From positions 3,552,001 through 3,616,000 of the forward strand of contig OZ251539.1 in the NCBI GenBank assembly GCA_965243135.1: a DNA stretch of 64,000 nucleotides. The letters are read 5' to 3'. The notes under the pieces are model-generated. The model was not told where the DNA came from. It made no database searches and was given only the letters and a program-made list of their open reading frames with translations. Positions 8,584 through 14,728 of this stretch are shown in pieces. The stretch's first letter is position 1. Every line of letters begins with the position of its first letter. The stretch comes from Alphaproteobacteria bacterium. Lineage in GTDB: Bacteria > Pseudomonadota > Alphaproteobacteria > MPNO01 > UBA830. A program made the translations under genes and the position numbers.

Positions 8584-9419
8584 CTGCCATTCCCCGCGAA
8601 ATCGCCGCTCCCGCTCTTCCGGTCACGCATGCAGGCTTCATATAGCGAAAGACCGGAGACGGCAAACCGCTTCGTCCAACCGGCGGATGGGCGAACGACC
8701 TACCGAACGAAACGATGCGTCGGCAAGCGGAACGCGGAATCGACGATTGCATCGGGTTTCGCCGATCGGAATGCAGCGCAGCGAATGGCGGGCTCGCCCG
8801 TACGCTACGCGCAAGGTCATTCGGCGACATTTGTCCCAAGAATCGAGGCCATGCTTTCGCAACCGCTTTCGCTTTATCGTCGCTGTGCGTTCGTGCCGCG
8901 AAGACGGTGCCGAGGTCAGCGGCAATTCGGCTTCTTCACCTTGACGAGCATGTTGGGCCCGAATCAGTGCTATGGCATTTCGATTGTAGTTGCGCATGCG
9001 ATCACGGATAATATTCTCATCCGGATCATGATCTCCGTCGGTCCATCTTCAAGACCGACTTGTCCAGACTTCGAAAACATTGGTTTCAGTAACGAGGTCG
9101 CCTGCCATATTGTCGACTTCACGCTCCGCAACGGGCCGGGAGCCGCCGAAAACGTCGGCTCCCTGAGATGGTATTCGTAACTTTAAGATTTTGCTTGGTT
9201 TTTCTCAAGATGTCGCGAATTCCGAGCGTATTACTTTTTGGAGAGGCACATGTTCCTGTCTCGCCTCGCCATCCTGCCCGAAAACGCGGTCGGCGCCGGC
9301 CTGAGACCGGCATTCGAAGGACTTCATCTGGCAAATTGAATTTACGCGATCTTCAGAGGTTTGAACTTCGTTCCGATCGCGCCGGACGCTGAGCTGTCGC
9401 CGAAAGCGCCAAGCCGTTC

Positions 9420-9700
9420 CCCACCGCGACCTCGCCGCCGGACGAATCTTTCGAACAACAGGTTCGTTTCACCCCCTCGCAGCACCGACGCGGACGCCCT
9501 GTCGCGTGCAGACCGCAAGACGCAAGTTTACATGGACCTTGCCACGGCTCGATGTCGGCTCCGGCGTTCCTGTCCGGCCCGGAGCGCAAACGGCACGGCT
9601 CGCCATGAAAAACGAACGGCCCGTTCGCCGGCAGCCTGCGGCGATATCGAAATGAACCGCAGACAGCCCGAAGCTAACTGCGCGGAACGGGCCGTCGGCG
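9420..9700 (-). pseudogene. possible ISL3-like transposase N-terminal remnant
   Basis: Degenerate 'VHFDIAAG...' followed by Cys-containing fragments; 9583-9645 has an inverted copy at 56362-56423. Confidence 0.3.
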
Positions 9701-9749
9701 TCCCGGATCGCAGCGGCTTGTGCCTTGCGCATCGGCGCTCAAGGAGAAA

Positions 9750-9899
9750 AGGAGGGTTTTTCTCGGCGGCGGGGGCGTTTGCTGCAGCACCTTGACTCAC
9801 CGGGCAGCACGTCCTGAAACGGCATTCGCGGCAGAGATTGCCGACCGACCGCGTTGCGCTTCGGAATTGACGCGTTGCGCTTCGGAATTGATAGGGGGG
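9750..9899 (+). mobile_element. IS30-family right-end remnant with tandem-duplicated IR
   Basis: CCTTGACTCACCGG...GATTGCCGACCG...GCGTTGCGCTTCGGAATTGATAGGGGG. The 21-bp unit is duplicated at 9850-9870/9871-9891. Homologous to the right end of the IS30 remnant at 55341-55436. Confidence 0.75.
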
Positions 9900-9929
9900 A
9901 TAATAAAAGCGACATCAATTACCGTGAAC

Positions 9930-10045
9930 GCTCATATGTAGGTTCAAACGACGGCACGATACGCCCACTTGGCGCGGGACTCAGTGAAGGCGTCCGCTGC
10001 CAAGATCGCCGATAGCATCGGTGCGGATATTCTGACCGGAAGGAT
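9930..10045 (+). pseudogene. tyrosine recombinase/integrase C-terminal remnant
   Basis: Translates HM*VQTTARYAHLARDSVKASAAKIADSIGADIL (catalytic Tyr box II). Confidence 0.75.
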
Positions 10046-10153
10046 GGGATCGGATGTGACTTGAGCCGCTATTGAGGAACGCGAAGGGTGCACCATCCCG
10101 TTTGTGCATCGTCACCGCTGTCGTTATCATAGCAAAGGTGCTATGAGGGAGCG

Positions 10154-10483
10154 GTGGTGGATTGGAGCGTCGGAACCCTGAACGCGACGGTGGACAGGGA
10201 GCTTGGAGCGCTGTCCGTCGACATGCGGGCGCGGTTTGCGAGAATCTGCCAATTGATTACTGCGGTCGGGTTGGAGCGCGTGGGGGCGCCTCACGTCAGG
10301 CACCTGACCGGACCACTTTGGGAAATGCGTATGAGCGGTCGGGACGGGATATCGCGGGCGCTCTACGTTACGGCCGGGGAGAGGCGGGTCGTGGTAGTGC
10401 GGGTGTTCCTCAAGAAGACCCCGAAGACACCCCGCCGGGAGATTGATTTGGCGCTGCGACGCGCCAAGGAGGTAACAGGATGA
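10154..10483 (+). CDS. type II TA toxin, RelE/ParE (Gp49/HigB-like)
   Basis: PHVRHLTGPLWEMR...RALYV...FLKKTPKTPRREI. Confidence 0.92.
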   Translation: MVDWSVGTLNATVDRELGALSVDMRARFARICQLITAVGLERVGAPHVRHLTGPLWEMRMSGRDGISRALYVTAGERRVVVVRVFLKKTPKTPRREIDLALRRAKEVTG

Positions 10484-10758
10484 GCAAAGTGACCGATCTA
10501 CATGAGGAATGGAGCCGTGATCCGGATTATCGTGAGGCTTATGACCGGCTTGGCCCGGAGTTCGAACTCTCTCGCTCTCTCATCGAGGCCCGCACACGCG
10601 CCAAGCTCACGCAAGCCGAGCTCGCGGAACGGATGAAGACGACGCAATCGGTCGTGGCCCGGCTTGAGAGCGGCCGCACCTATCCTTCGGCCAGAACCCT
10701 CGAAAAGATCGCGCGCGCCACCGGTACCCGTCTTCGGATCAGTTTCGATCCAGCATGA
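10480..10758 (+). CDS. XRE-family HTH antitoxin
   Basis: LTQAELAERMKTTQSVVARLESG; ATGA overlap with the toxin. Confidence 0.92.
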   Translation: MSKVTDLHEEWSRDPDYREAYDRLGPEFELSRSLIEARTRAKLTQAELAERMKTTQSVVARLESGRTYPSARTLEKIARATGTRLRISFDPA

Positions 10759-10840
10759 TGGCAGTCTCCGGGAACGGGTACCGACTCGTCGTTCGTTTCG
10801 GCTATGTGCGCCGGGTCTGGCTTATACCCTTCGTGGGTGC

Positions 10841-11014
10841 ATGAAGACGCAGACCTTTGATCTCGTACTGACACGCTATGTAATCGAACGGCTGCCGCCA
10901 CACGCTTATCGATTCGTTCTCAAGGGCACCATGCTGCTGATGGCTTGGTTCGACGGGCCGTTCCGTAGTTCGCGTGATCTTGATCTCTTGGGCCATGGCG
11001 ACCCGGCGCCTTGA
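10841..11014 (+). pseudogene. AbiEii/AbiGii nucleotidyltransferase toxin N-terminal fragment
   Basis: TRYVIERL...RFVLKGTMLL..W....RSSRDLDLLG motif, truncated at an IS30 end. Confidence 0.75.
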
Positions 11015-11083
11015 CTCACCGGCCGACTCCATCCCCATACTTTCCTCGCGACAGGGATTGCCGACCGCCGGTACTGCACTTCG
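11009..11083 (+). mobile_element. IS30-family right end, split by the IS1111 insertion (continues at 12357-12370)
   Basis: Joining the flanks gives ...GATTGCCGACCGCCGGTACTGCACTTCG|GAGTCGATAGGGGG, matching the other IS30 ends. Confidence 0.8.
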
Positions 11084-11098
11084 TGTATGGACGCCCCC

Positions 11099-11332
11099 GT
11101 TGATGCAAGCATTTTGGAAAGCTCGGTGCATGCGGTCAAGTACATTCGTGTGTCTGGATGCGACTTCAGTGGCCGCGGACGGCGATACGCGGACCGGGTC
11201 CAAGTGCGTGCTCGAAGCACACAAGAAGTGCAGCTGGTTTGCCCGCTCTATGACCATTTGCCCTTACTCTCCCTCCGTCCTTGCCCCCGACGTTATCCTA
11301 CAGCGCTAGCGCTGTCGGATCCCGGGAAACCC
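11099..11332 (-). ncRNA. candidate bridge/seek RNA of the IS1111-type element
   Basis: 3' non-coding region. The minus strand has CUGCACUUC (11233-11225), identical to target 11074-11082, next to hairpin UGUGUGCU-UCG-AGCACGCA. Confidence 0.6.
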
Positions 11333-12273
11333 TCAGTCGGCAGCCGGCGCGATTGCCGGCACCTGGTAGAACTCCTTCTTCGTCAGCAGCGCCCAAGCGG
11401 TACGCGCCATCTTGTTGGCCAGAGCCACCGCCACCAGCTTCGGAGGCTTGGTCGCAAGCATCTTGGCCAGCCACGAGCCCTTCGGAGCATCGCGTCGTTT
11501 CGCCAACCGAACGACCGACATTGCGCCGATGCTCTCCGGATGTCACGCTGACCCGTGGCCGAGCCTCACTTTGCCGCCCGTGCTGTCCTCTCTCGGCGTC
11601 AGACCCAGCCAAGCCGCGAAGTCGCGCCCCGACCGGAAGTTCTCCCGGCGCGAAGGCTGCCGAAGCGGTCAAGGGACCGACCCCGGGAATGCTCCGCTTC
11701 GAGTCCTCCTTCGCAAGCGCCGCGATCCTTTTGTCGATCTCGTCGATCTTCTTTTTCAGACTGCCGCTCCAACAGATCGGCTGCGGTGTACCAGGTCGGG
11801 CAGGCGATGCCAGCAACGCATCTTCGAGCTTCCTGACGTTGGCAGTGCCTTGGGGAACCACGAGACCGAACTCCGCAAGATGACCGCGAAGTGCGTTAAT
11901 CGTCTGGGTCCGCTGCCGCACGAACAGGCTGCGCGCATGCCACATCATTCCCTGCTGTTCCTCGGTCTTCACAGCGACGAATCGCATCGTCGGTGCGGCT
12001 TCGGCGATCGCCTCCGCCCGTGTCGTTCTTCTGACGCTTGACGAACGGCTTGACGGGTGGCAACAACCTGACCTCGCGGCCAAGCTTCTCCCGGCCCCAG
12101 TAGTGCGAACTGCCGCAAGCCTCCACGATGCACTTCGGCTGTCGCTTCAGGAAGTCCAGAACCTTCGGGCGGCCGAGGGTCCGGCGAAACGCAACGGATC
12201 CGTCCGTTCGAGCACCGTGAAGCGAGAAACTCCGCTTCGCCAAGTCGATGCCGATTATGCTAACCTGTTCCAT
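11333..12273 (-). pseudogene. IS110/IS1111 transposase (DEDD), frameshifted
   Basis: IIGIDLAK, VEACGSSHYWGR, KRQKND, RTQTINALRGHLAEFG, IPGVGPLTA, VALANKMARTAWA, spread over several frames. Confidence 0.92.
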
Positions 12274-12370
12274 GGATGTCCTCTCTCCATATGTTGTGGT
12301 TCGACAGCACTATGGCACAATGCGATGCCGCCGGGGAGGGGGCGTCCATCCCATCGGAGTCGATAGGGGG

Positions 12371-12540
12371 CACTTGGTACGAACGGAGGTGGGGCGAATT
12401 CTTATGCGTCCTCAAGACCGGAGCCCGGGGATCGCAACTTCGACGAGGTCGATGACCTCAAGCGTTGCCTCGCTTTCGACGCCATCACCGCATGGAGGGT
12501 CCTCGACCGCCTGGCGCGGGAAAAGCCCGGCACTCCCGGA
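12371..12540 (+). pseudogene. IS4 (Tn5-like) transposase fragment
   Basis: WYERRW...RVLKTG...DDLKRCLAFDAITAWRV (YREK region). Confidence 0.65.
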
Positions 12541-12706
12541 AAACGGGAAACTCTGGAACAGGTACGTCAAGTTGAAGCAATCATCTGTCGTGTATCGCGC
12601 CGCCAGAAATGCAGAGTTGAATGTGGGAGGATGACAGAAGGCGAATTGAGCCACGGACGAAGACGAAGGAAGGACCCTGCGCCGAGCAGGTGGAGTTCGT
12701 CAACCT

Positions 12707-13030
12707 TCAACCCGCACGCCACCGACGCTGGCCTGTGCGCCTCGCCTGCACGAGAATGCCAGTCATGCGGAGACGCCAATCGACCAGCTTCGTGCTGACG
12801 CCAAACACCCGGCTGATGGCTTCCGATGACGGCATGCGCCGATACACACTGAGCAATCCATCACGGGGCAGCAGGAGGGTACCAGCAAGCCAGTCAGCCT
12901 CATCTTCTTGTTCGGCATCATAGCGGTCTCTGAACAGGAACCCTTCCTCGGACACGCTGGCCGTCGCTGGACGGTGGTCCAGAAGGATGTGTGCGAGTTC
13001 GTGGGCCAAGCTACTGTGCTGCCGATTCTT
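12707..13030 (-). pseudogene. ImmA/IrrE metallo-endopeptidase C-terminal fragment
   Basis: LAHELAHILLDH (HExxH) and EQEDEADWLAGTLLLPR; N-terminus replaced by IS4 sequence. Confidence 0.8.
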
Positions 13031-13039
13031 GGCTGGGGG

Positions 13040-14728
13040 CTGTCGGGTTCGCGGCCTCGGCACGCCGCTGTCGCGACCGCCGGCTGGAACGACGACCGAC
13101 GGCGCACTTGCCTGCACCGGGTCTTGTGCCTGTCGCGCTTCCGCCCCGGCGTGCCGCACCTCGCATGTGTTGAGACGGGTGGCGGGCATGGCAGGGGACG
13201 ATTTCGGGGCGCGCTACGGCTACCGCCCTGCTGGAGACCTTTGATGGACAGCATACGGGAGCGAGTTTCCGGGCCGCGAACTGGCGATGGGTGGGGAAGA
13301 CCAGCGGTCGCGGTCGCTTGGGGGGCGCGGCGAAGACACCGAAAGCGGTGTACATGTACGGCGCGGGATGGCGGGAGCACCTGCGGGGGCCCGAACCGCA
13401 TTTTGCGCCGCTGGAGGCCGGGGCCGGCCTGGACCGGAAGAGCTGGGCGGAACAGGAGTTCGGCGGCGCGCCGCTGGGAGACGCACGCCTGAGCGCACGG
13501 CTGGTGACTTGCGCCCGGATCCAGGCGGACGCGCCGGCGTTCACGGGCGCCGCGAGGGGGGAAAGGCTTACTACCGTCTGCAAGCCGGACAACGAGGCGG
13601 TGGAGAACATCCTGCAACCGCACCGGCGCTGCAACGGATGCAGGGGGAGAAGACGGTGTTGTGCGTGCAGGACGGCAGCACGCTGAACTTCGCAAAGCGT
13701 GGCAATGGGTTGGGAATCAGGAACCAGACCGCCGCCGCTGCCCGAGGCCTGCACCTGCACGCCACGGTGAACACGGACGGGTTGCCGCTGGGGGTTCTGC
13801 GAGCCGCGTTCGACGCCCCGCAGCCGGGCGCGGAGAAGAACAAACCTCGCGAGGAGAAGAAGTCGTATCGCCGAGGGTCTTCGCGACAGCGCCGAGGCCG
13901 CCGCGGCTGGCGTGCAAGTGGTCGGCGTCCCGGGAGGCGCAGTTCGTCGACCTGTTCGTCGAGCGGCGCGAGCGGACGCCGGGAGTGGAACTCTTGGTGC
14001 GGGCGAAGACCAACCGCGTTCTCGAAGAGGACGACAAGCTGTTCGACAAGGTGCGGAAGAGCCCGGCGCAGAGCAAGATGACGATCAAGCGTCTGAGCGC
14101 ACGCGTCAAGGCCAGCAAGCAGGCCGCGAAGGCCACCTCACCGTCAGGCCACCGTCAAGCTGCGTTATCTCAAGGTGAAGTTGCCGGCGAAGGGCAAGGA
14201 TCCCGTGACGATCCTGCATGTCCGCGAGGAAAACCCGCCAACCGAAGCTGCCCGGCGGTTCCTGTTGACGACGCTGCCGGTCGAGGGTGCCGCAGACGCT
14301 GAGCGCCGTGGTACGGTTTGCGCTGGAGAATCGAAGATTATTTCCGCGTCTTGAAGTCCGGCTGCCGAGGAACTTGAGAACCAAACGGCCGAGCGACTGC
14401 AACGCGCCGCTGCCATGGTCATCGCCTGGCGCATCCATGGCCCGCCTCGGACGGGAACTGCCCGACCTGCCGCCCGAGCCTCTGTTCTCGGACGTCGAGC
14501 TCTGGGTACTGGCGCTGTTCGCCGCACCGCAAGGATGCGCCGAAAAGCCTCGCGGAAGCGGTTGCTTTGGTCGCAAACCTCGGCGGCTATTTCAAACGCA
14601 AGCGGGATCCGCCAGGCGCGGAAGTGATGTGGTACGGCTACGCCCAACTCGCCGCAATGGCTCTTTTTCGGGAACTTGAGGATGAATATCAATAATGTCC
14701 AAACGCCATTTATGGGGCACAGGCAGGC
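13040..14728 (+). mobile_element. IS4-family transposase with N-terminal DUF4338 (DruA-like) region, decayed
   Basis: RVLCLSRF, ARYGYRP, RAANW..VGKTSGRGR, WAEQEFGGAPLGDARLSARL, VQDGSTLNF, GLHLHAT, LGGY..RKRDPP; right end ATGGGGCACAGGCAG. Confidence 0.85.

Follow-up and report, generated by a model that had tools for sequence, protein, structure and literature searches.

A probable relic of a seekRNA / bridge RNA gene in a broken IS1111-type element inserted in an IS30-family inverted repeat

The 64-kb stretch of DNA analysed here (the window: 64,000 nucleotides of contig OZ251539.1, assembly GCA_965243135.1, from an Alphaproteobacteria bacterium) contains a broken insertion sequence of the IS1111 type, which lies within the right terminal inverted repeat of an IS30-family element. 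The non-coding region 3' of its transposase gene (window 11084-11332) is very likely the relic of a seekRNA / bridge RNA gene of the IS1111 group, and the ancestor of this gene would have been aimed at IS30-family inverted repeats. An initial annotation, made from the letters of the window alone, had taken the region for the guide RNA of the element. The gene, its first target guide, its donor guide and its target are upheld by the comparison with related elements, whereas the proposed second target arm was wrong, and both the RNA gene and the transposase have decayed. Because structural parts of the RNA have been lost and the transposase is broken in every copy in the genome, the window gene is very probably not a working guide RNA at present.

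The IS1111-type element and its target

The element and its insertion site comprise the following features.

11084-12356, minus strand: IS1111-type element, with boundaries derived from uninterrupted copies of the target and from the empty-site contig of run X6
11333-12273, minus strand: transposase pseudogene of the DEDD / IS110-IS1111 type, readable in three frames only
12338-12349, minus strand: left sub-terminal inverted repeat, ATGGACGCCCCC in minus-strand reading, preceded by a 7-nt extension, CGATGGG (12350-12356)
11087-11098, minus strand: right sub-terminal inverted repeat, GGGGGCGTCCAT in minus-strand reading, followed by a 3-nt extension, ACA (11084-11086)
10998-11083, plus strand: target sequence on the left of the insertion, belonging to a solo right-end module (dispersed repeat of ~105 bp) from an IS30-family element, with an inverted repeat that starts near 11065
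12357-12370, plus strand: right part of the target, the final 14 bp of the IS30-family right inverted repeat, GAGTCGATAGGGGG, as identified from uninterrupted copies

The element is 1273 bp long when one copy of the core dinucleotide CG (12355-12356) is counted; CG stands at both junctions, and the second copy (11082-11083) is assigned to the target. Read on the minus strand, the element starts with CGATGGG-ATGGACGCCCCC and finishes with GGGGGCGTCCAT-ACA, the 12-nt sub-terminal repeats being perfect. According to PMC11187229, the IS1111 family is characterised by sub-terminal inverted repeats of ~11-13 bp, with a 7-bp extension on the left and a 3-bp extension on the right, and the window element has sub-terminal repeats with extensions of 7 and 3 nt. 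It also has the long non-coding region downstream of the transposase gene that is typical of the family. This region measures 249 nt (11084-11332), as compared with 267-272 nt in the five intact relatives measured; the initial annotation had recognised it correctly, except that its terminal 15 nt were left out.

The transposase gene was identified by tblastn with the intact transposase of a related genome (G047; 340 aa, with PF01548 and PF02371). Three pieces are recovered in the window, corresponding to aa 1-91 (70% identity), 94-233 (53%) and 236-337 (56%), with an E value of 2.7e-80. The DEDD (RuvC-like) transposase with PF02371 that is expected of an IS1111 element is therefore recognised through homology to the G047 protein, the window gene itself being a pseudogene. 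Four more copies of the element, 78-90% identical to it and more damaged than the window copy, are present in the 6.1-Mb genome (G000), together with end fragments, and a tblastn search of the whole genome with the G047 protein found no intact transposase among the copies. At several sites in the transposase gene the pattern of deletions among the copies, as judged by eye, is not tree-like.

The boundaries are confirmed by a contig of 468 nt from a 2022 metagenome (run X6), which joins 11080 to 12354 and thereby skips 1273 bases, with three letters that fit either side. Over 178 flanking positions this contig differs from the window at one only, so that an empty allele of the window locus exists. 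The insertion is thus polymorphic between close populations, although the copy is broken. The empty site and the cognate copies, which lie at CACTTCG/GAGTTGA (the stroke marking the insertion point) in IS30-type ends, indicate site-specific insertion without target duplication, as is known for IS1111 elements.

Uninterrupted copies of the target read ...GCACTTCG up to the insertion point and GAGTTGATAGCGGG after it, or, with a longer left side, ...TTGCACTTCG and then GAGTTGATAGCGGG. The insertion point is 14 bp from the tip of the IS30-family right inverted repeat. The module to which it belongs is present in at least 25 copies in the genome, and the same module lies directly 3' of the only complete IS30-type transposase gene in the genome (NF033563, 277.6 bits, G000 329839-330687). 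The 372-aa open reading frame of that IS30 element is flanked by a 19-nt inverted repeat that is 84% complementary (TCAAGTGTGAAGTGCAATA / TATTGCACTTCGGAGTTGA). Since the module is 3' of an intact IS30 transposase gene that is bracketed by an inverted repeat, the target is taken to be an IS30-family right inverted repeat, as initially annotated, and at the window locus it is a solo end, with no IS30 transposase adjoining. A right-end fragment of the IS1111-type element elsewhere in the genome (L023) adjoins a sequence resembling the IS30 left repeat. A small-RNA gene or a repetitive extragenic palindromic (REP) element was also considered as the target, on account of the motif TTGACT-N18-CATACT, but was dropped, because the same module is the IS30-family right end; six uninterrupted copies of the IS30-end repeat gave no Rfam match at E ≤ 1.

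Guide segments in related elements

Related elements were collected in two ways. When 61 related genomes were searched at the DNA level, the non-coding region was present in nine of them, G000 included, and a protein-based scan of a species collection yielded 80 loci with transposases 62-100% identical to that of G047. Both element ends could be located by pattern in 67 of the 80 loci. There were 34 distinct non-coding regions with both sequence anchors, and 29 of these were aligned after omission of the near-duplicates L040, L045, L050, L056 and L088. The related transposases are mainly from Alphaproteobacteria and from metagenome-assembled genomes of Longimicrobiales, Vicinamibacterales and Binatia, and the intact elements measure 1352-1435 bp, with a few longer; the intact element of G047, for instance, is 1374 bp long and occurs there in at least 12 copies. 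The non-coding region of the window is homologous to that of 76 of the 80 related elements, each of which scores at least 79.9 bits with the family RNA model; the model finds no match in the remaining four (L044, L047, L096 and L101), which are cut or truncated loci. The initial view of the window region as a homologue of the guide-RNA gene of IS1111-type elements is in agreement with this positional homology.

Three guide slots are readable in the relatives. The top-strand target guide occupies 10-12 nt right after the conserved AAAACCAG and is complementary to the core and the right flank. The bottom-strand target guide follows a hairpin and GC, and is made up of a copy of the last 5 nt of the left flank, then CG or TG as the core and finally an A; it agrees with the left flank and core at 7/7 positions in 20 of the 29 elements, with one mismatch in two and with two to four mismatches in seven. 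The donor guide comes after the GGCC stem and repeats the final 5 nt of the right end, followed by the core and an A. The donor slot is exact in 26/29 elements, as compared with a mean of 3.7 and a maximum of 12 under permutation, and among 13 distinct combinations of end and donor guide 11 are exact.

The correspondence between guides and targets was assessed by permutation, with one element taken for each of 22 target classes, 20000 permutations, and the summed longest match as the statistic. For the top-strand guide the observed sum with the own target is 135 (permuted 79.8 ± 4.9, maximum 109), and for the bottom-strand guide it is 138 (permuted 83.5 ± 5.1, maximum 113); in neither case did any of the 20000 permutations reach the observed value. 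The mean match is 6.4 with the own target vs 3.5 with other targets for the top-strand guide, and 6.5 vs 3.6 for the bottom-strand guide. This is the covariation between guide segment and insertion flank, in an alignment of homologues, that the initial annotation had named as the check on its proposal. Among 27 elements outside the training alignment, which include several sister copies of aligned elements, 24 have no more than one mismatch in the bottom-strand slot and 24 have an exact donor slot, in agreement with the above.

It is of interest that the base 3' of the core in the bottom-strand guide is A in 29/29 elements, i.e., the first base of the left end of the element and not the next base of the target. 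This A would pair with the recombinant left junction and is a possible 'handshake' position. Three of the 27 elements outside the training alignment (L051, L053 and L064) have TG at the left junction, yet CG at the right junction and in the guides, so that the cores of their two junctions disagree.

Some relatives carry rearrangements that involve the guide-coding DNA. Tandem arrays of the terminal 142 bp (L002 1075-1733, genome G045, four units) and of the terminal 131 bp (L082 2275-2996, six units) are present, and at their junctions the right end is joined to internal DNA that either codes for the bottom-strand guide or is similar to it, and that amounts to half of a target. The sequences suggest that the arrays arose from self-insertion or half-site recombination. 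Other relatives are, by their guides and flanks, inserted in sister elements: in the 5' part of the RNA gene (L041), in the right sub-terminal repeat (L063 and L086) or in the donor-guide region (L067, L068 and L094), and L066 is also among them. The family model detects a second copy of the RNA gene beside the insertions of L041, L063/L086, L067/L068, L094 and L066.

Structure of the family RNA

RNAalifold applied to the 29-row alignment gives 35 pairs in seven helices. In these, 97.9% of the cells are paired, and 15 pairs show compensatory change, as compared with 5.8 in shuffled alignments (0/500 shuffles reaching the observed number). Related sequences can beat shuffles in such a test; when the partners are slid by 1-3 columns, however, the pairing falls to 27-44%. 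Both this control and the variety of pair types argue that the structure of the relatives is real.

The predicted structure is closed by a helix (helix 2) of GAUGUGGGC with GCUUGCAUC, which has nine pairs, four of them compensatory, and the 3' strand of which overlaps the -35 box TTGCAT. Within it, stem P1 (GGAUCGGG with CCCGAUCC) and a CC/GG pair enclose loop 1. These two helices (3 and 4) are 97.8% and 100% paired, respectively, with six compensatory pairs. Loop 1 contains a small hairpin (helix 5), in which two of the four pairs show compensatory change. Loop 2 contains a GGCC/GGCC stem and a GCGGC/GCCGC hairpin, as well as a conserved 5' segment, CUCCAU, that is able to pair with the left end of the element.

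The window copy

With this family frame, the following features can be assigned in the window. MAFFT misplaced the gaps of the window sequence in the donor loop, and the gaps were read from the covariance-model alignment instead.

11140-11252, minus strand: putative relic core of the seek/bridge RNA gene, with target-binding and donor-binding loops (covariance model R1, 42.9 bits, E 1.4e-8)
11225-11233, minus strand: top-strand target guide, CUGCACUUC, directly after the conserved AAACCAG (11234-11240) and complementary to GAAGTGCAG of the right flank
11205-11223, minus strand: hairpin between the target guides, homologous to family helix 5 and also in the minimum-energy fold
11204-11205, minus strand: expected site of the bottom-strand target guide, where seven model positions are missing
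11191-11203, minus strand: UUGGACCCGGUCC, conserved over the 22 target classes as the 3' strand of P1 and of the CC/GG pairs (initially taken for a second target arm)
11160-11176, minus strand: donor-loop hairpin, GCGGC-CACUGAA-GUCGC, family helix 7
11146-11153, minus strand: donor guide, ACACACGA, in the same sense as right end, core and A, and matching ATACACGA at 7/8 positions
11102-11110, minus strand: 3' strand of the closing helix, GCUUGCAUC, which overlaps the -35 box TTGCAT (11103-11108) and the 5' partner of which is deleted in the window

The match at 11140-11252 is the single one below E 0.01 in the window. The other copies in the genome score 42.7, 37.3, 35.2 and 11.7 bits with the model, and two relatives on which it was not trained score 131.6 (L003) and 126.7 (L002).

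The initial annotation had pointed to a 9-mer, CTGCACTTC, which is identical to the target flank and is found at exactly two sites in the window, 11074-11082 (plus strand) and 11225-11233 (minus strand). Its assignment as a target guide agrees with the relatives, because it lies in the same slot as their guides, which covary with the right flanks. The guide has nine contiguous matches; its tenth position is occupied by U, whereas pairing with the C of the core would require G. The ninth match, the C at 11074, is peculiar to the window locus, the other ends having T there. The hairpin next to the guide, UGUGUGCU-UCG-AGCACGCA, forms eight pairs on the minus strand, including one U-G, as had been described. 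Likewise, TCGTGTGT at 11146-11153, which reads ACACACGA on the minus strand, agrees at 7/8 positions with right end, core and first left-end base (ATACA-CG-A), and its assignment as a circle-junction, or donor, guide is strengthened by the relatives, in which this slot copies the right end and core in 26/29 cases. Joining of the two ends would give TTGCAT (11103-11108, minus strand), 17 nt and CACGAT; the sequence was verified, and it constitutes a predicted circle-junction promoter, the TTGCAT of which is kept in most relatives. The segment UUGGACCCG, in contrast, is not a second target arm. It is conserved in relatives that have unrelated targets, where it forms the 3' strand of a stem, and it gives no clean match.

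The preference among targets is consistent with the guide. The 45 free IS30-type right ends in the genome read GCGCTTC in 26 cases, GCACTTC in 11 and otherwise in eight; the two other window copies, near 9875 and 55412, both read GCGCTTC, so that the difference from GCACTTC pointed out initially is real. GCACTTC is the variant that the window guide matches, and it is found in 5/5 occupied ends (the window, L010, L014, L021 and the L023 fragment) vs 11/45 free ones (Fisher p = 0.002). Copy D (L018, G000 2955339-2956329) was excluded from this count for its unrelated flank. Its guide, CCGCGCUUC, would suit the commoner GCGCTTC ends; its own right flank is unmatched and its left end is absent.

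The losses in the window copy are considerable. Apart from the loss of the bottom-strand guide, the closing helix lacks its 5' strand and P1 lacks most of its 5' strand; part of a donor guide segment is missing, and the GGCC stem is lost through the absence of six positions that include the 5' GGCC and seven that include the 3' GGCC. The properties expected of a seekRNA are divided between the window and its relatives. Covariation of guide and flank is found in the relatives, over 22 target classes and with the held-out elements in agreement. The donor segment follows the own ends of the element, exactly in 26/29 relatives and at 7/8 positions in the window. A top-strand and a bottom-strand target match within one loop are found in the relatives, and only the former in the window. 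A structure backed by covariation is likewise found in the relatives, while the window reaches 42.9 bits vs at least 79.9 in the 76 relatives and lacks some of the stems.

Alternative explanations

Several observations weigh against the interpretation of the region as a relic guide-RNA gene. The 9-mer by itself is only weakly beyond chance (0.35 matches expected in shuffles of the window, and two or more in 4/100 shuffles), and the weight must therefore come from the relatives. The three transposase pieces of the window, taken alone, give no Pfam match at E ≤ 0.01, and a scan of positions 9000-14000 against Rfam 15 gives 0 matches at E ≤ 1. Among the runs on record as RNA, none contains the stretch. 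Folds of single sequences are no better than those of shuffles (z = -1.26 for the window and -0.53 for the relative L039); the structure was therefore taken from the alignment. The minimum-energy fold of the window pairs 7/9 guide bases with a downstream GAAGU-GC. A location of the 9-mer in a paired stem is what the initial annotation had named as speaking against its guide, and it does so in the window fold; the family, however, does not conserve this pairing and has the slot in an internal loop, and the window fold is without statistical significance. Finally, all five genomic copies have the same deletions in the non-coding region. Either the family spread after the loss, by mobilisation in trans or with a reduced RNA that worked, or the deletions may recur at the same places.

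The frequency of the 9-mer in shuffles and the lack of an Rfam match would be compatible with a region that is only cis-acting DNA, with transposase binding sites and half of a promoter but no RNA gene, the 9-nt identity being due to chance. The right end does contain a -35 box and a sub-terminal repeat. Nevertheless, this explanation is very improbable, because the slot occupied by the 9-mer is precisely the one whose sequence varies with the flank over 22 independent target classes, because the donor slot reproduces the end of the element in 26/29 relatives, and because the compensatory changes in the helices are far above those in shuffles and in slid registers, which DNA-binding sites would not yield. 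It is hardly credible that the matches represent target DNA captured into the element, e.g., by aberrant recombination, and not a selected guide. Aberrant recombination within the non-coding region does occur in relatives, as seen in the 142-bp array of L002 and the 131-bp array of L082, which start at guide-coding DNA. The slots, however, are fixed in position, length and register across the relatives; of the two guides, one has the complement of the target sequence and the other the target sequence itself, with overlap at the core, as in the published seekRNA layout; and in the 22-class permutation test the guides match their own insertion sites better than those of others.

A different question is whether the reduced RNA might still work, as a minimised seekRNA that uses the top-strand guide and one donor guide for a 'half-match' recombination, with a transposase supplied in trans. 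The five copies with the same deletions in the non-coding region, which are 78-92% identical, occupy different IS30-end sites; the occupied sites are the guide-matching GCACTTC in 5/5 cases; the guide of the window also fits the locus-specific C at 11074; and at the window locus another metagenome contains an allele without the element, the flanks of which differ at 1/178 positions. In addition, recognition of a half-site is reported (10.64898/2026.08.31.748434) to be sufficient for some IS621 reactions. On the other hand, the genome is without an intact transposase of the family, two helices with covariation support have lost one strand each, the GGCC stem is absent, and the model score of the window is a third of that of the relatives. 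An intact ancestor, or a helper with the same guide, would account for the site preference equally well, and the empty allele may be the ancestral state. A half-guide RNA that is still working is thus unlikely, and only a slight chance is given to it. The interpretation of the window gene as a relic, inherited from an element with complete guides, is preferred.

Comparison with known systems

In the IS1111-family seekRNAs of ISEc11, ISKpn4, ISPa11 and ISPst6, described by Siddiquee et al. in 2024 (PMC11187229), the segment that matches the top strand comes 5' of the one that matches the bottom strand, with an overlap of both matches within the target. The family described here resembles these systems in several respects. 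The RNA is encoded downstream of the transposase gene; the sub-terminal repeats have 7-nt and 3-nt extensions; the top-strand match is 5', with overlap at the insertion point; there is no target duplication; and a promoter is predicted to form at the circle junction. The relatives have, moreover, been redirected by changes in the guide slots, as have those seekRNAs. The elements differ in belonging to another clade and in having an IS30-family inverted repeat as the target, and the window copy further differs in that its transposase is broken and the bottom-strand guide and several stems are missing. Furthermore, the RNA of the present family is a predicted one.

Bridge RNAs have been predicted in the right end of 93% of IS1111 elements (Durrant et al. 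2024, PMC11208160). The same source describes the bridge RNA of IS621, of the IS110 group, which similarly has a target and a donor loop, with both strands read around a shared core dinucleotide and with covariation between loops and DNA. The IS621 RNA is in the left end with the opposite order of guides, whereas in the present family it is in the right end.

A resemblance to the IS621 'handshake' position may be seen in the bottom-strand target guide, which is always followed by the A of the left end instead of the next target base. The guides of IS621 are named LTG, RTG, LDG and RDG, in addition to the 'handshake' guides.

Location inside the terminal inverted repeat of another transposon has a precedent in IS4321 / IS5075 of the IS1111 family, which reportedly insert at a fixed position inside a 38-bp repeat of Tn21-family transposons, as Partridge & Hall are said to have found in 2003. 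The host repeat is of the Tn21 family in that case and of the IS30 family in the present one.

ISPpu9, an IS110-family element, has a REP sequence as its target and a small RNA gene, for Ssr9, downstream of the transposase, and there are solo copies of the RNA gene elsewhere (PMC12288879). Compared by description only, it is similar in its insertion in a dispersed repeat and in the position of the RNA gene 3' of the transposase, and different in the target, which is a REP sequence. Among the titles and abstracts listed in a literature search, no IS1111-family element aimed at IS30 repeats was found, which is no proof that none has been published; the supplementary tables of PMC11208160 and PMC11187229, with bridge RNA predictions and target logos for ISfinder entries, may already list close relatives.

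Possible mechanism

By analogy with the published systems, transcription of the RNA, its binding by protein and the exchange of strands may be pictured as follows. In working relatives the RNA would be transcribed from the region downstream of the transposase gene, most likely via the circle-junction promoter, and would fold as a long closing helix that holds two internal loops. In loop 1, a 5' guide would be complementary to the top strand of the right flank and core, and, after a hairpin, a 3' guide would correspond to the last 5 nt of the left flank and the core. In loop 2, the 3' guide would correspond to the right end, core and first left-end base, and the 5' CUCCAU segment could pair with the left end. 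The RNA would thus hold target and circle junction together for the DEDD recombinase, and the strands would be exchanged at the CG core.

The ancestor of the window element, or else a helper with the same guides, would have been aimed at CACTTCG/GAGTTGA of the IS30-family inverted repeat. The window copy retains the top-strand guide (9/10) and the donor guide (7/8), and is without the bottom-strand guide, a strand of the closing helix, a strand of P1, part of a donor segment and the GGCC stem, each removed by a deletion of ~5-7 nt.

Deletion spectrum of the genome

The copies of the element in the genome (the window vs L010, L014, L018 and L021) differ chiefly through deletions of 5-7 nt with AT at their start or end, a type to which the losses in the non-coding region also belong. 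Such deletions are not confined to this element, and in repeated DNA across the whole genome nearly all deletions measure 5 or 6 nt. When the genome is compared with itself, the lengths of insertions and deletions peak at 5 nt (2444) and 6 nt (2542), with 1178 at 4 nt and 186 at 7 nt. Among 1558 distinct events of 5-6 nt, AT can be placed at one end in 745, as compared with ~6% of random 5-6-mers, and 813 have no microhomology. The five largest other repeat families have 4, 1, 1, 38, 45, 3 and 1 derived (minority-gap) deletions of 1, 2, 3, 5, 6, 7 and 9 nt, respectively, and 50/83 of those of 5-6 nt can be placed against AT. In ten families, 133/162 such events look like deletions and 17 like insertions. 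Variants of the IS1111-type element with 5-6 nt left out are also present in contigs of four runs from three studies, and are therefore not an artefact of one assembly.

From these data it may tentatively be proposed, as a rather doubtful explanation, that the guide-RNA gene and the transposase have been trimmed by a genome-wide process that removes 5 or 6 nt, often starting at AT, from repeated DNA. If this is true, it could represent an undescribed form of silencing of insertion sequences, or the footprint of an enzyme that cuts with a stagger of 5-6 nt, and a single such deletion would account for each of the lost parts, namely the bottom-strand guide, the strand of the closing helix, that of P1 and the donor segment. 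The titles and abstracts listed in a literature search contain no mention of a 5-6-nt deletion spectrum, which is no proof of its being unpublished.

Other features near the insertion

The genome contains 45 uninterrupted IS30-type right ends vs one intact and one broken IS30-type transposase gene (NF033563). Most of these ends are solo modules of ~105 bp that carry the promoter-like TTGACT-N18-CATACT, and examples in the window lie at ~9787-9898 and ~55412. Upstream of the IS30-type end in which the element is inserted, a Gp49/HigB-like gene (10154-10483; PF05973, E 1.1e-21) overlaps an HTH_3 gene (10480-10758; E 5.1e-14), and the two are likely a toxin-antitoxin pair. They are followed by a short AbiEii-like fragment (10664-11014; E 1.2e-5), which stops where the IS30-type end starts.

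Implications

The finding itself changes little, since the guide RNA of the right end of IS1111 elements is already known and the window copy is very probably dead. The mode of its destruction points to an unusual deletion spectrum in this genome, which deserves a separate study. The clade as a whole represents a natural 'reprogramming series', with 22 target classes and 13 combinations of end and donor guide, 11 of them exact. The series fixes the register of the three readable guide slots and of the 9-bp closing helix that overlaps the -35 box, and it could help in the choice of compact IS1111-type recombinases for engineering. The IS30-family target provides a further example of an IS1111 element lodged in the end of another mobile element, and several of the relatives are aimed at the RNA genes or the ends of their sister elements.

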